Of a stretch of 32,000 nt of DNA, positions 3,916-22,639 are shown one piece after another. Origin of the DNA: Moraxella nasicaprae (lineage in GTDB: Bacteria > Pseudomonadota > Gammaproteobacteria > Pseudomonadales > Moraxellaceae); assembly GCF_025643275.1 (NCBI RefSeq), contig NZ_CP089977.1, forward strand, positions 1,620,001 to 1,652,000, given 5' to 3'. Positions within the stretch are counted from its first letter, which is position 1, and each line of letters opens with the position of its first letter. The position numbers and the translations under genes are program-made. The notes under the pieces were generated by a model that made no database searches, was not told the DNA's origin, and was given only the letters and a program-made list of their open reading frames with translations.

Positions 3916-4287
3916 ATGAATAAATGGCAATCATACATCTTGGCGATGGCATTGTTGGGTTTTGGTGTCGGTCAATCGCAGGCAGCGATATATTTGGGTC
4001 AAGATGCCTCTGGGCATGATTGGACTTTTTTGGAAAAACGCATCGTCAATAAAGGGCTTGGCTACAAGGAGAGTTGGGCATTTATTGAGAGAGGCAATGA
4101 CAAGCGAAAGGTGCTGTATTCTTTTAATTGCAATCGTGCCAGCGTTGCTCAGCTTGCGGTTGATGACTATAAAGTGGCACGAGGGCGTGCTGACCGCCTG
4201 ATTCATTCGTGGCGACCTGTCAGACCCAGTTATTATCAGATTGGTCAAGGCACTTTTGAGGCACAGATGTATTATATCGCCTGTTAA
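3916..4287 (+). CDS. small secreted protein, possibly surface-adhesin protein E-like
   Basis: AGGAGA SD 8 nt upstream of the ATG. Signal peptide ...GVGQSQA/A. Two Cys (in NC, and the C-terminal residue). The segment Y..NC.....Q...D.Y aligns position-for-position with my recollection of Haemophilus protein E around its disulfide Cys. Confidence 0.45.
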   Translation: MNKWQSYILAMALLGFGVGQSQAAIYLGQDASGHDWTFLEKRIVNKGLGYKESWAFIERGNDKRKVLYSFNCNRASVAQLAVDDYKVARGRADRLIHSWRPVRPSYYQIGQGTFEAQMYYIAC

Positions 4288-4298
4288 GCATCATCAAA

Positions 4299-4335
4299 AC
4301 AAACACAAAATCTTGGCTGGGTTTTGTGTTTTTTG
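4299..4335 (+). terminator. rho-independent terminator
   Basis: Stem AACACAAAA (4302-4310) pairs with TTTTGTGTT (4322-4330), followed by a T-run. Confidence 0.7.
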
Positions 4336-4386
4336 ATGAGAATTGGTAGGTTGGCTGTGTGAAAATCTCCCATTTGCCAAATTTTA

Positions 4387-4395
4387 TGCTAAAAT
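4387..4395 (+). promoter_or_regulatory. candidate extended -10 element (TGCTAAAAT) for miaB
   Basis: TGnTAAAAT lies about 45 nt upstream of the ATG at 4440. Confidence 0.35.
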
Positions 4396-12319: not shown

Positions 12320-13339
12320 ATGTCGCAAAGTTTAGCGATGAGTGCTCAATATTTTCGCAGACAAGCCAAATATTGGTTCTTGGCTGCCATCATTATTGCC
12401 ATCGTTTGGCTGGTTGTGTGGCTGACTTCTGCTGCACCCAGTTTGACAAACAAGGCAGGCGAAGAAGAGCAAGTGGCGGCGGCATTGCCAACTCGCATTG
12501 AACATTTTGTGGATTTGGCAAAAGAAGTGCGTCCGATTGATTTTTCGACAATCGTGCGTGATATGCGTAGCTATCCTGCCGAATTTAAGGATAAGCTGTA
12601 TTATGAAAATATGGGCAATCGTTATACCATTGAATTGATGGATGTGCTTGAAAATGAAGTCATTGTTGATTATTTGGAAGGAGTGGTAGACCGTCAGCAA
12701 TACGCTTATTTTCGCTATTTAGACAAAGAAAAAAGACCGCACTATGTATTGACCTATGGTAAGTTCCAAACGGTAGAAGAGGCACAACAAAACATCACGA
12801 CAAATAATTTTGGTCTGCCACAAAGCCTAAAACCAAAGGTGGTCAAAGCGGCTGATTACCTAAAAATCATCGATAACTACATGCGTGCCGAAGGGATTGC
12901 CGATTTGGCAACCAATCAGCCACGCCGTATCATTCTTAATGCCACCAACAAAGAGATTCCTGTACAGGCAGCGACTCGTGCTGATGAGGATTTGGTGCGT
13001 CGTAGTTATGAAAGTCAGGCAAAAGTGCGTTCACAGCTTGCCAGACAACAAGAATACGCCAAGTATAATGAATTTGGTGGCTATGCCAGTCAGCCAGCTG
13101 AAAAGCAGATGGCAGCACCGGCACACTCTACACCAACACCAGCACCTAGTGAGCAAAGCACGCCGCTGACAGAAGCACCAGCGATGGCACCGACAGCCAA
13201 GCCAACTTCTGCACCTGTGCAGGATAATACACCAAAGCCTACTAATTTTGCCCCAACGCCAAAACCTGATGCCATGGCACCGACAGCCAAGCCAACGGCA
13301 GAGGCACAGAGCGTACCAGCGGAGGCAGGCGAGCAATAA
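12320..13339 (+). CDS. DamX-like membrane protein with SPOR-like domain and Pro/Ala/Thr-rich tail
   Basis: One N-terminal TM helix. A central segment (YTIELM....YAYFRY.....HYVLTYGKFQTVEEAQQ) resembles a SPOR fold signature. Occupies the position after aroB where damX lies in enterics. The C-terminal roughly 90 aa are low-complexity PAT-rich. Confidence 0.5.
   Translation: MSQSLAMSAQYFRRQAKYWFLAAIIIAIVWLVVWLTSAAPSLTNKAGEEEQVAAALPTRIEHFVDLAKEVRPIDFSTIVRDMRSYPAEFKDKLYYENMGNRYTIELMDVLENEVIVDYLEGVVDRQQYAYFRYLDKEKRPHYVLTYGKFQTVEEAQQNITTNNFGLPQSLKPKVVKAADYLKIIDNYMRAEGIADLATNQPRRIILNATNKEIPVQAATRADEDLVRRSYESQAKVRSQLARQQEYAKYNEFGGYASQPAEKQMAAPAHSTPTPAPSEQSTPLTEAPAMAPTAKPTSAPVQDNTPKPTNFAPTPKPDAMAPTAKPTAEAQSVPAEAGEQ
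13184..13206 (+). repeat. 23-bp exact direct repeat, copy 1 (encodes MAPTAKPT)
   Basis: ATGGCACCGACAGCCAAGCCAAC is identical to 13274-13296 and lies in frame in the PAT-rich tail. Confidence 0.9.
13274..13296 (+). repeat. 23-bp exact direct repeat, copy 2
   Basis: Identical to 13184-13206, 90 bp (30 codons) downstream. Confidence 0.9.
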
Positions 13340-20213: not shown

Positions 20214-20603
20214 CTAATCTTGTTCGAGTGATGTAATGATGGGGCAATGATGCAAGCCATCGCCCAAACAACTGTCGTGCCAGACTTGCAGGGTGTTTTT
20301 CATGGTTTGCAGTTCGTTGATTTTGTCGGTCAATTCAGCGATGTGCAGGGCGGTAAGAGCCTTGACTTCGCAGTTTGTTCGATTGGGATTGCTTTGCAAA
20401 TCAAGCAATGTACGAATCTGTGCCAGCGAAAACCCAACCGCCCGAGCATGAGCGATGAATTTAAGTCGCTTGATGTCGCCATCATCATAGCAGCGGTAGC
20501 CTGAGGCACTGCGAGCTGGGTGGTTGAGCAGTCCGATTTTTTCGTAATCTCGAATCTGTTTGCTGGACAGTCGAGTTAGTTTGGCGGCTTGACTGATGTT
20601 CAT
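20214..20603 (-). CDS. MerR-family heavy-metal-responsive transcriptional regulator (CueR/ZntR/CadR-like)
   Basis: HTH MNISQAAKLTRLSSKQIRDYEKIGLL, dimerisation helix, and C-terminal metal loop C-LGDGLHH-C-PII. Starting at the ATG at 20603 (MNISQ, as in CueR), the cysteines fall at 78, 112 and 120. The longer track start at 20624 adds 7 residues. Confidence 0.85.
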   Translation of the reverse strand: MNISQAAKLTRLSSKQIRDYEKIGLLNHPARSASGYRCYDDGDIKRLKFIAHARAVGFSLAQIRTLLDLQSNPNRTNCEVKALTALHIAELTDKINELQTMKNTLQVWHDSCLGDGLHHCPIITSLEQD

Positions 20604-20633
20604 TGTGGGTTTGTTAAATGACATTAAAATTGC

Positions 20634-20664
20634 TTGACCTTGACATAAGGTTATGGTTTAGAAT
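20634..20664 (+). promoter_or_regulatory. MerR-type promoter/operator: TTGACC, 19-bp spacer, TAGAAT
   Basis: -35 TTGACC at 20634-20639 and -10 TAGAAT at 20659-20664, with exactly 19 nt between them. Palindromes ACCTT-N5-AAGGT (20637-20651) and CATAA-GG-TTATG (20644-20655, centred on the spacer midpoint). Confidence 0.6.
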
Positions 20665-20717
20665 ACTAAAAAAATAACCCATTGGCAAATTTTTTGCCAT
20701 TTTTTAAGGAGAGTGTG

Positions 20718-20843
20718 ATGTCAAATCAAACTGAAACAACCAGCCAATCTTGCACTTGTACTTGCAGCTGCTGCCAAGACCATAGCAAATGCGATCCAAA
20801 TTGCAAATGCTCACAAGGCGAGCCGTGCATTTGTGGCAAATAA
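20718..20843 (+). CDS. 41-aa cysteine-rich peptide, metallothionein-like (absent from the ORF track)
   Basis: AAGGAG (20706-20711) lies 6 nt upstream of the ATG. Hand translation: MSNQTETTSQSCTCTCSCCQDHSKCDPNCKCSQGEPCICGK, then stop TAA at 20841-20843. It has 10 Cys in CxC/CC clusters and sits downstream of the MerR-type promoter. Confidence 0.6.
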   Translation: MSNQTETTSQSCTCTCSCCQDHSKCDPNCKCSQGEPCICGK

Positions 20844-20865
20844 GCCTAAGAGAATTTAGAACCAC

Positions 20866-21774
20866 TCAATCTAGGTTGGGTGGTTTTTTGTTGCGATATT
20901 GACTGGGCGTGATTTGATAGTAGCTTTTAAAGGCTTTACCAAAATGCGTCTCGGATAAAAAACCAGTGGATAGTGCGATGCTTAGAACAGAATCATTGCT
21001 TTGGGCAAGTAGCATTGCTGCTTTTTGCAGGCGGATTTTATGCACAAAAGCGTGTGGTGTCGCCTGCAAATGCTGATGAAACAGCCGAATCAACTGCGAG
21101 CGAGACAGATGAGCAAAGTCGCTCATTTGTTCAATTCGCCAATCTTGCTCAGGGTGTTGCATGATGGCGTTGATGAGCGGCTGCAATCTGGGTTCTTGAT
21201 AGCCTTTGAGCGTGCCAAGCACTTGGGCATTTTTATCGGTCAGATATTGGCGTAGCATCATTGTCAAAAAGACAATGGATAAAGCATTGACGACCGATAC
21301 GCTGGCAAGTGATGGCTGATTGGCTTCATGTTTTAGCAGGTCGATGAGCGTGCTAAGCGGGCTTTGTTCAATGTGTAAAATCAGCATTTCTGGCAAGCTG
21401 TACATCAACTCAGCGTGCCTATCATAATGGAAATGCAAACAAAATAATTCACAATCATGGTCGCTATCGCCGATTTGATTGATGACAAAACCGCCTTGAT
21501 TGCTAAATTTTTGGGTGTTTGTTGATGGCGGTTGTTCGGTATGGCTATACAGACAATGCGTTGGCGTGCGTGGGAATAGGGCAATATCGCCTTCATTAAG
21601 CAGCCAAGTTTCATCGCCGTGCGTCAATTTTGCCATGCCTTTGGTAACGATATGGGCGACAGCTTGGGCATCTTGGGCGGTGTTGTCTAATTGCCAGTTG
21701 CCATGTAATTGGCATTTGATGTTTACGCCACCGGTGATTTGGGCGAAATTGAGTAATTTATCTAGAATGTCCAT
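20866..21774 (-). CDS. AraC-family transcriptional regulator with N-terminal cupin-like domain
   Basis: 302 aa. The C-terminal double HTH (SRSQLIRLFHQHLQATPHAFVHKIRLQKA...GFLSETHFGKAFKSYYQITPSQYR) is typical AraC/XylS. The N-terminal half is cupin-like. Confidence 0.85.
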   Translation of the reverse strand: MDILDKLLNFAQITGGVNIKCQLHGNWQLDNTAQDAQAVAHIVTKGMAKLTHGDETWLLNEGDIALFPRTPTHCLYSHTEQPPSTNTQKFSNQGGFVINQIGDSDHDCELFCLHFHYDRHAELMYSLPEMLILHIEQSPLSTLIDLLKHEANQPSLASVSVVNALSIVFLTMMLRQYLTDKNAQVLGTLKGYQEPRLQPLINAIMQHPEQDWRIEQMSDFAHLSRSQLIRLFHQHLQATPHAFVHKIRLQKAAMLLAQSNDSVLSIALSTGFLSETHFGKAFKSYYQITPSQYRNKKPPNLD

Positions 21775-21835
21775 CGTGATTGCATCGTCAGGGATTTGAG
21801 ATAATTGTACTGTAATTTGGAACGATTTGATAGGA

Positions 21836-21863
21836 TTTACCCAAAAAAATACGCTATTATACT
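21836..21863 (+). promoter_or_regulatory. candidate promoter for the AhpD-like/rhodanese operon (TTTACC, 16 nt, TATACT)
   Basis: Hexamers at 21836-21841 and 21858-21863. Phased GATTTGA-like repeats lie immediately upstream. Confidence 0.3.
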
Positions 21864-21893
21864 CATATCCTTTTTACTTTTTAGGAGTTTATT

Positions 21894-22235
21894 ATGTCAT
21901 TTGCAGATTGGAAACACATCAGTCGCCACACCAAACAATCTTTTGGTAAGCTTGGCAAAACTCATCCAAAAATGCTAGAAGCCTATGCCACGCTTGACCA
22001 AGCGGCAGCAGCAGAAAGCCTAGATGCCAAAACTCGTGAGCTGATTGCCATCGCAGTTTCTATCACCACTCGCTGTGAAAGCTGTATCGCTGTGCATACC
22101 GAAAAAGCATTGGCAGCTGGTGCAACCGAGAGTGAAATCGCTGGTGCGTTGGCAACAGCCATCTCTTTGAATGCAGGTGCAGCTTATGCGTATGCTTTGC
22201 GTGCCTTAGAATCTGTGGAAGCTCATCAAGGCTAA
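21894..22235 (+). CDS. carboxymuconolactone decarboxylase (AhpD-like) family protein
   Basis: 113 aa with the family CxxC motif in TTRCESCIAVHTEKAL. AGGAG SD upstream. Confidence 0.8.
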   Translation: MSFADWKHISRHTKQSFGKLGKTHPKMLEAYATLDQAAAAESLDAKTRELIAIAVSITTRCESCIAVHTEKALAAGATESEIAGALATAISLNAGAAYAYALRALESVEAHQG

Positions 22236-22246
22236 GAAGGGGGTAG

Positions 22247-22639
22247 ATGATGAAAAAATCTGTTCTTGCAATAACGGGATTGATTTTGCCAGTTGCGGTG
22301 TTGGCGTGCAGTCAGCCAAAATCTGAGGTCACAGCACAAACTTCGGCAGATACCCAAGTGCAACCTGCTACTGCTGAGCACGCCAAGGGTCTTTGGATTG
22401 ATGTGCGAAGTGCTGAGGAGTATAGCGAAGGTCATCTAAGCAATGCCATCAACATTGCTCATACGCAAATTGGCGAACAAATCGCCTCAGTCGCCCCTAA
22501 TAAAGACGAGCCGATTCATCTGTATTGCCGTTCTGGTCGTCGTGCCGAAGCTGCTTTGCAGACGCTAAAATCAATGGGTTATACCAATGTTACCAATCAT
22601 GGTGCTTATGATGATTTGGTGAAGCAAGGTCTAAAATAA
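22247..22639 (+). CDS. periplasmic single-domain rhodanese (PspE-like sulfurtransferase), probable lipoprotein
   Basis: Signal peptide with lipobox VLAC. Rhodanese active-site loop YCRSGRRA. AAGGGGG SD. 11 nt after the upstream stop. Confidence 0.8.
   Translation: MMKKSVLAITGLILPVAVLACSQPKSEVTAQTSADTQVQPATAEHAKGLWIDVRSAEEYSEGHLSNAINIAHTQIGEQIASVAPNKDEPIHLYCRSGRRAEAALQTLKSMGYTNVTNHGAYDDLVKQGLK

Follow-up and report, generated by a model that had tools for sequence, protein, structure and literature searches.

We analyzed a 32,000-nucleotide stretch of the Moraxella nasicaprae genome (contig NZ_CP089977.1, positions 1,620,001 to 1,652,000), which we call the window, and found in it a compact locus made of a MerR-family regulator gene and, divergent from it, a short open reading frame (ORF) encoding a metallothionein-like peptide. 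The features of the locus are listed in Table 1. The ORF translates to MSNQTETTSQSCTCTCSCCQDHSKCDPNCKCSQGEPCICGK. Ten of its 41 residues (24%) are Cys, one is His, and Phe, Tyr, Trp, Leu and Val are all missing. The Cys residues form the motifs CxCxCxCC, CxC and CxC, with CTCTCSCC as the N-terminal run. This is the composition by which metallothioneins are recognized: a small protein, rich in Cys arranged as C-x-C or C-C, in which aromatic residues are rare or missing. The 41 amino acid sequence has no signal peptide. The peptide is absent from a collection of 15 billion proteins, and we therefore regard it as unannotated. A longer version of 53 amino acids, starting from TTG at 20682, was considered and rejected; it has no Shine-Dalgarno sequence, and its start falls within a hairpin of the 5' untranslated region (UTR). 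Since the gene has its own promoter, ribosome-binding site and terminator, it makes up a complete monocistronic unit.

An earlier note on this DNA, made from the sequence alone, had already picked out the 41-codon ORF with AAGGAG at 6-nt spacing, the single His and the lack of Phe, Tyr, Trp, Leu and Val, the long-spacer promoter with a palindrome in its spacer, and the Cys112-x7-Cys120-PII loop and Cys78 of the regulator (numbered from MNISQ). All of these are found as described, at the coordinates given in Table 1. The note had also counted ten Cys, correctly, but placed every one of them in a C-x-C or C-C cluster; Cys25 sits instead in C-x3-C.

Table 1. Coordinates of the features of the regulator-peptide locus, in window positions.
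Feature	Position	Strand	Details
CueR-subfamily MerR regulator	20214..20603	-	129 amino acids from MNISQ, plus stop; Asn77-Cys78, Cys112-x7-Cys120-PII
MerR-type promoter of peptide gene	20634..20664	+	TTGACC 20634-20639, 19-nt spacer 20640-20658, TAGAAT 20659-20664
Putative operator dyad ACCTTGAC-N5-GTTATGGT	20637..20657	.	6/8 arm positions complementary; centred in spacer
Putative promoter of regulator	20660..20688	-	TTGCCA, 17 nt, TATTCT; consensus scan 9/12 positions
5' UTR hairpin UGGCAAA-UUU-UUUGCCA	20683..20699	+	7-bp perfect stem and U-run; terminator-like by pattern, directly before Shine-Dalgarno sequence
Shine-Dalgarno sequence AAGGAG	20706..20711	+	6 nt upstream of ATG; invariant among four close relatives
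Metallothionein-like 41 amino acid peptide gene	20718..20843, including stop	+	ATG 20718, TAA 20841-20843
Intrinsic terminator	20858..20889	+	13-bp stem, 4-nt loop, U-run

The promoter of the peptide gene (TTGACC-19-TAGAAT) occurs once in the window, with 0 chance matches. Together with the operator, it is invariant across four close relatives. Both the CueR-dependent copZ/copA promoters of Pasteurellaceae and those of the homologous peptide genes described below can be aligned with it base by base. The pattern ACCTTNAC-N5-GTTANGGT has one match in the window, against 0.11 expected by chance, and the operator dyad recurs in relatives. Its centring in the spacer is presumably the same as in the E. 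coli copA promoter. The regulator would be expected to occupy this dyad. Scanning the window with both the promoter and the dyad pattern reveals no second operator, which agrees with the earlier view of the peptide gene as the only visible target of the regulator.

The -10 element of the regulator's putative promoter overlaps the -10 element of the peptide promoter. Overlapping divergent promoters of this kind are typical of MerR-family autoregulation. The terminator, which is absent from the earlier note, has a fold energy of -16.3 kcal/mol (z = -2.9), and none of 200 shuffled sequences is equally stable. It overlaps the stop (20866) of a convergent AraC-family gene, an arrangement that would allow it to serve both strands. 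The 5' UTR hairpin contains the -35 element of the regulator's putative minus-strand promoter. As an attenuator this hairpin was rejected, its fold energy being no better than that of shuffled sequences (z = -0.22).

Is the short ORF translated? We compared it among four close relatives (one Moraxella sp. genome and three Logan assemblies), which are approximately 96% identical. The ORF is intact in all four. It has three substitutions, all of them synonymous third-position transitions (Cys TGC/TGT, Ile ATT/ATC, Gly GGC/GGT); a fully synonymous set of three would arise by chance with P = 0.005-0.03. Between the 47 and 49 amino acid types of more distant homologues (see below), dN is 0.20 and dS is 1.39, giving a dN/dS of approximately 0.14, with 12 of 12 Cys kept. 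As judged from these substitution patterns, the ORF is a genuine coding gene, and the earlier proposal of an unannotated metallothionein-like gene withstands the comparison it had itself suggested, that of conservation and purifying selection. It could be argued instead that the ORF is untranslated, the Cys-rich frame being accidental and the promoter either driving a small RNA or being the relic of a lost copZ/copA operon. No gene caller annotates the ORF, chance Cys-dense frames do exist antisense to real genes (for example at 13034-13339), and the hairpin in the 5' UTR resembles a terminator. We consider this very improbable in view of the strong Shine-Dalgarno sequence at ideal spacing from an ATG, the dedicated terminator, the purely synonymous changes in close relatives, and the homologues in other genera that keep every Cys. 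Furthermore, independent Cys-rich ORFs of different sequence stand in this position beside regulators of the same clade in M. nasovis, in Acinetobacter and in a metagenome-assembled genome (MAG).

One of the close relatives, Moraxella sp. GCA_030530725 (L081, 3610-3745), has an insertion of approximately 135 bp with inverted ends between the peptide stop and the terminator. The equivalent window position is approximately 20859; the insertion is absent from the window and from L084. Two Logan contigs (L082 and L083) break inside it, which suggests a repeat resembling a miniature inverted-repeat transposable element.

The divergent regulator is identical to WP_263077365.1 of M. nasicaprae, which NCBI names "Cu(I)-responsive transcriptional regulator." We take MNISQ as its real start because the upstream ATG at 20624, which would give a 136 amino acid product, is lost in close relatives. 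With 155.1 bits it passes the cutoff (147.4) of the NCBIfam CueR model TIGR02044. It fails both ZntR models (103.8 bits against 167.95 for TIGR02043; 109.9 against 143 for NF007069) and the CadR/PbrR model TIGR02047 (90.8 against 151.45), and its score with the MerR model (86 bits) is far under the cutoff. In a gapless alignment with E. coli CueR (1q05), C112 and C120 coincide with the Cu(I) ligands, the C-x7-C loop is of equal length, and Ser77 and Ala78 of CueR correspond to Asn77 and Cys78. Ser77 is the hallmark of monovalent-metal sensors (PMC11591864); the regulator has Asn in its place. The third ligand of divalent sensors, Cys78 in PbrR and Cys77 in CadR, also aligns with residue 77. 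Positions 77 and 81 of the helix face the metal in the structure of CadR, whose site uses Cys77 and Asn81 (PMC6789929); residue 81 of the regulator is Lys. The earlier note had put Cys78 at the same distance from the conserved Pro as ZntR Cys79. This is right by counting, but in helix register Cys78 aligns with Ala78 of CueR and not with Ser77. ZntR has, we assume, one extra residue in its loop, and for this reason Cys78 would lie one position out of helix register relative to ZntR Cys79.

Cys78 is conserved through a clade of CueR-like proteins from Moraxella, Acinetobacter, Pasteurellaceae and Neisseria, in which residue 77 is S, R, N or D; most relatives in the clade have Ser. The regulators paired with the peptide in relatives have either Ser77-Cys78 or, in many cases, the canonical Ser77-Ala78. 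Ser77 is kept in all paired regulators except those of the M. nasicaprae type (Asn77) and of the MAG (Arg77). The loop of the regulator in this strain additionally contains His118-His119. A role of these residues as extra ligands is weakened by a 98% identical protein (P0002) in which His119 is Tyr. In Neisseria dentiae and N. leonii (L001, L087/L088; regulator at 4001-4390), a regulator of the Cys78 clade is divergent from a CDF gene (Cation_efflux) with a 19-bp-spacer promoter in front of it, an unusual layout for a CueR-like sensor. In place of the CDF gene, a DUF411/CopG-like gene is found in a second N. dentiae assembly (L002).

Which metal does this regulator sense? A sensor of the Zn/Cd/Pb type had been predicted, and our results do not support this prediction: the CueR cutoff is passed while those of ZntR and CadR are failed, Cys78 lies one residue past position 77, and copper genes accompany the peptide gene in relatives. 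In many of them the peptide gene heads a same-orientation operon, either with a DUF305/CopM-like gene or with a DUF411/CopG-like gene and a multicopper oxidase gene; in one relative locus, a P-type ATPase gene lies nearby. DUF305 corresponds to CopM, a family of resistance proteins that bind copper (PMC4335983). The resistance islands in which these operons are found also carry a separate MerR-CDF pair, which presumably serves Zn and Cd. From the class of the regulator, the agreement of the operator with copZ/copA promoters, the Ser77 of most paired regulators and the company of the peptide gene in relatives, Cu(I) is probably the inducing metal.

Several of the same residues can be read in another way. 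Ser77, on which monovalent selectivity depends, is replaced by Asn with a Cys next to it, and this Cys78 is conserved over the whole regulator clade, the Neisseria members of which are divergent from a CDF gene. CDF transporters usually export divalent ions. The regulator might then sense Zn, Cd or Pb with Cys78 as the third thiolate ligand, and the peptide would be a Zn/Cd-thionein, its ten Cys building an M(II)3 cluster in the style of a metallothionein (MT) beta-domain. A passage in PMC11591864 describes an S77C variant of Salmonella CueR whose response is broadened to Zn/Cd. We nevertheless consider a divalent sensor unlikely, as the regulator's scores with the ZntR and CadR/PbrR models are far under the cutoffs. 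The loop has the CueR length, C-x7-C, and is not of the ZntR type, CC-x3-H-x4-C. Cys77 of CadR and Cys78 of PbrR align without gaps with residue 77 and not with residue 78, and position 78 is not one of the two metal-facing positions of the CadR helix. Moreover, the regulators paired with the peptides of this family have Ser77-Ala78 or Ser77-Cys78, the peptide genes are co-transcribed with genes for copper proteins, and the islands have the separate MerR-CDF pair for what are presumably the divalent ions.

Direct searches with the peptide are nearly silent. A word-indexed protein search gives no candidate, phmmer against 1.84 billion representative proteins gives no hits at E <= 0.001, and neither Pfam nor NCBIfam has a match at E <= 10 for the window peptide or for the family homologues tested. 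These empty results can be explained by the short length and the composition of the peptide, and by the fact that most family members are not called as genes. A profile search of a 5.8-billion-protein set finds only two Pasteurellaceae/Moraxella clusters and a frameshift chimera (P0136). A genome scan with the regulator returns 80 loci, none of them from Moraxella and none with a Cys-rich ORF beside the regulator. We located distant homologues through the genomic surroundings of regulator homologues.

Homologues of 47-49 amino acids are found in several Moraxella, in Pasteurella multocida and in other Pasteurellaceae of livestock, where they lie in islands of metal and drug resistance; two copies are present in M. 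nasicaprae itself. They include WP_162028652.1, WP_263075901.1 and their relatives (P0128, P0131, P0133, P0135). The window peptide is 34-37% identical to them and shares the core C-x-P-x-C-x-C-x-x-G-[EK]-P-C-I-C; in the alignment (A4) there are 12 invariant columns, including seven Cys, P27, G34 and I38. Like the members of the P0128 and P0131 clusters, it combines the core motif with a divergent CueR-clade regulator and a 19-bp-spacer promoter. The longer forms differ in having a C-terminal C-T-C-x-x-C-x-C extension, which is missing from the window peptide, whereas the N-terminal CTCTCSCC run of the latter is denser than theirs. Downstream of their genes lies DUF305, or DUF411 together with a multicopper oxidase gene, whereas the window gene is monocistronic. 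All peptide genes found are divergent from a clade regulator and have a 19-bp-spacer promoter. Judging from the shared motif, regulator and promoter, the window peptide belongs to an uncharacterised metallothionein-like family, of which it is a shortened and divergent representative.

The divergent position is occupied by Cys-rich ORFs in further organisms. One is found in Moraxella sp. FZLJ2107, and M. nasovis has an unannotated ORF of 42 amino acids. Acinetobacter sp. (L103, 2673-2837) has a monocistronic gene for a 54 amino acid peptide, and two MAG contigs (L104, 207-440; L106, 143-376) encode a 78 amino acid form with an internal duplication in which GRPLDENGKCTCPPDC is repeated. The peptides of M. 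nasovis, Acinetobacter and the MAG have position and composition in common with the window peptide, and their sequence homology to it is not clear. In an independent scan of metagenomes, with the operator DNA pattern alone as the query, a peptide gene lies downstream in 14 of the 35 loci found.

The annotation of these genes is peculiar. At several loci (L086, 520-666; L089/L090/L092, 2664-2810; L104, 200-391), a wrong, overlapping frame is annotated over the Cys-rich ORF. These calls produce Ala-rich "proteins" of 48-63 amino acids, and P0136 is a frameshift chimera of both frames. Annotated family members are named "hypothetical protein" by NCBI, and two M. nasicaprae paralogues have the automatic name "Metallothionein" in UniProt. 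In the literature, we found no description of the peptide family or of a CueR-controlled metallothionein, and the small Cys-rich ORF goes unmentioned in the ICEHs1 paper (PMC6048870). The earlier note had suspected something undescribed here. This stands insofar as there is no family model and no paper was found, but paralogues of the peptide are in the databases, two of them with a fitting automatic name. What we describe belongs to a known kind, the bacterial metallothionein-like peptides, within which the family and its pairing with such a regulator are new.

A different arrangement is found in a Moraxella genome (CP089975; L097, 4782-8941), in which a single island has a MerR-CDF pair and then two CueR-like regulator-peptide pairs in tandem; DUF411 comes after one of these pairs and DUF305 after the other. 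Peptide variants of mosaic make-up found elsewhere suggest that metal modules recombine with one another.

How does the peptide compare with known metallothioneins? By analogy of function, its closest counterpart is MymT of Mycobacterium tuberculosis, which like the window peptide is small (approximately 5 kDa), Cys-rich and was at first unannotated. MymT is actinobacterial and is controlled by RicR, a CsoR-type repressor, not by a MerR-type activator. Neither phmmer (against the same 1.84 billion representatives, E <= 0.001) nor the profile search reveals a sequence relationship between the two. MymT is up-regulated by copper, is required for Cu resistance and is predicted to bind up to six Cu(I) (PMC7558416). 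The SmtA/BmtA family (PF02069, including Pseudomonas PmtA) is likewise bacterial, small, Cys-rich and metal-binding, but its Cys pattern is unlike that of the window peptide. SmtA is regulated by SmtB, an ArsR/SmtB-type repressor. PF02069 (Metallothio_Pro) gives no match at E <= 10 to the window peptide or to four homologues, and NCBIfam is also empty, so that the earlier impression of a peptide unlike SmtA/BmtA is upheld by the family models. Zn is the metal handled by SmtA, whose zinc-finger-like fold has Cys and His as ligands (PMC7558416).

A further resemblance is to the beta-domain of vertebrate MT-2 (PDB 2mhu). Residues 26-39 of the peptide (20793-20834), DPNCKCSQGEPCIC, match the N-terminus of that domain, DPNCSCAAGDSCTC, at 8 of 14 positions, and the 47 amino acid homologues nearly reproduce the MT beta-domain spacing C-x-C-x5-C-x-C-x2/3-C-x-C-x2-C-x-C. 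The profile search against PDB gives E = 3.4, which is not significant, and a pairwise comparison with an MT2A sequence gives E = 1e-4. PF00131, the vertebrate metallothionein family, has no match to the window peptide or its homologues. Because the database match is not significant, we regard the resemblance as convergence and not as membership.

The canonical CueR regulon (copA and cueO in E. coli; copZ-copA in Pasteurellaceae) has the same regulator family, the same Cys112/Cys120 loop, a 19-bp-spacer promoter and a dyad of the ACCTT...AAGGT type. Its targets are an exporter, a chaperone and an oxidase, whereas the predicted target here is a sequestration peptide. The window regulator itself differs from canonical CueR in belonging to the distinct Cys78 clade and in having Asn for Ser77.

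We propose that the locus is a two-gene metal-sequestration switch with a cytoplasmic, Cu(I)-induced peptide as its output, and we give this reading a probability of roughly 0.6. A dimer of the regulator would sit on the dyad, which lies in the unusually long 19-bp spacer of the peptide promoter. By analogy with its relatives, binding of metal, most likely Cu(I), would let the regulator untwist the spacer, realign the -35 and -10 elements and switch the promoter on. From the behavior of the family, the product would be a monocistronic transcript from approximately 20671 to the terminator at 20889. The regulator's own promoter on the minus strand (TTGCCA-17-TATTCT, 20688-20660) overlaps that of the peptide gene and is probably repressed by the regulator. 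The peptide would wrap itself around a metal-thiolate cluster, buffering surplus metal in the cytoplasm, with an expected load of approximately 4-6 Cu(I) or approximately three divalent ions per peptide, by analogy with metallothionein domains of 9-10 Cys. An AF2 model of the peptide has a pLDDT of 53, a value that is uninformative on the formation of such a cluster and is compatible with a peptide that needs metal in order to fold.

The surroundings in the window are of a housekeeping kind and include mdh, an SLT-domain transglycosylase, a MiaB-like enzyme, PilM/PilN-like proteins, a secretin, aroB and a POT transporter, as well as AraC-family, CMD-family, rhodanese, TonB-dependent receptor and rhomboid genes, cydAB and dsbD. 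In annotation at the level of Pfam and NCBIfam, no P-type ATPase, CDF or RND gene is found anywhere in the window, which widens the earlier remark that no efflux gene is adjacent. Directly beside the peptide gene (20866-22639) lie an AraC-family regulator (best match RclR, sub-cutoff), a divergent AhpD-like CMD protein and a PspE-like rhodanese. RclR is a regulator of the response to reactive chlorine, and these genes may form a thiol- or oxidant-stress cluster.

Might the peptide be more than a passive sink? It could shuttle Cu(I) to exporters or periplasmic partners, or act as a thiol-redox buffer against oxidants. Redox buffering would suit the window neighbors, and a shuttle would suit relatives in which the peptide gene comes first in operons with CopM-like, CopG-like and oxidase genes, as well as the canonical CueR loci, which hold the chaperone copZ in the same slot. 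But the peptide has neither an HMA/ferredoxin-like fold nor an MxCxxC motif, and the partner proteins are periplasmic while the peptide lacks a signal sequence. In the window, at the Acinetobacter locus and in one MAG, the gene is monocistronic and without partners, and 10-12 Cys far exceed the needs of a one-site chaperone. A shuttle or redox role therefore seems to us quite unlikely, less so only than an untranslated ORF, and we return to the sequestration switch as the preferred reading.

Several points weigh against that reading. The coding evidence in close relatives amounts to only three substitutions, and between the window peptide and the rest of the family dS is saturated, with a dN/dS of approximately 0.5. 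The rough neighbor-joining tree in which the peptide-paired regulators separate from the copZ-paired CueRs of Pasteurellaceae has no support values. In the regulator, Asn77 stands in place of Ser77, together with Cys78 and with His118-His119 in the loop, so that its selectivity may differ from that of canonical CueR. Since Ser77 is missing and the Neisseria members of the clade face a CDF gene, some weight has to be left to a divalent or mixed metal response, which we hold to be improbable but a little less so than a purely divalent one. Finally, our survey covers the 32 kb of the window, and a copA gene or a second, cross-regulating CueR may lie elsewhere in the genome.

A review that treats efflux as the main cytoplasmic defense against copper names two kinds of bacterial metallothionein and no more, SmtA/BmtA and MymT (PMC7558416). 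If the proposed switch is real, copper handling by Gram-negative bacteria would gain a sequestration arm, in which a metallothionein-like peptide is the direct, and in this locus the sole, output of a CueR-type activator; the peptides would also make up a new family that annotation pipelines have missed or put in the wrong frame. It is tempting to go further and to see here a third independent family of bacterial metallothioneins, with Cys spacing like that of the vertebrate MT beta-domain, spread among respiratory bacteria of livestock by islands of metal and drug resistance and served by dedicated sensors of the Cys78 clade with a non-canonical metal range (e.g., Cu(I) together with Zn/Cd), the M. 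nasicaprae copy being a sequestration-only regulon. This larger picture is speculative, and we doubt that it holds as a whole.

Tolerance of Cu and Zn is thought to be co-selected, together with antibiotic resistance, by the supplementation of feed. In Pasteurella, Histophilus, Glaesserella, Actinobacillus and Moraxella, the resistance islands place the family next to mco, czcD and tet(H)-type genes, and cargo of this kind is also carried by the published ICEHs1 (PMC6048870). Given this setting, the family could contribute to feed-related Cu/Zn tolerance and has been overlooked there. The conserved Cys78, next to selectivity residue 77, amounts to a natural experiment on metal discrimination by MerR sensors.

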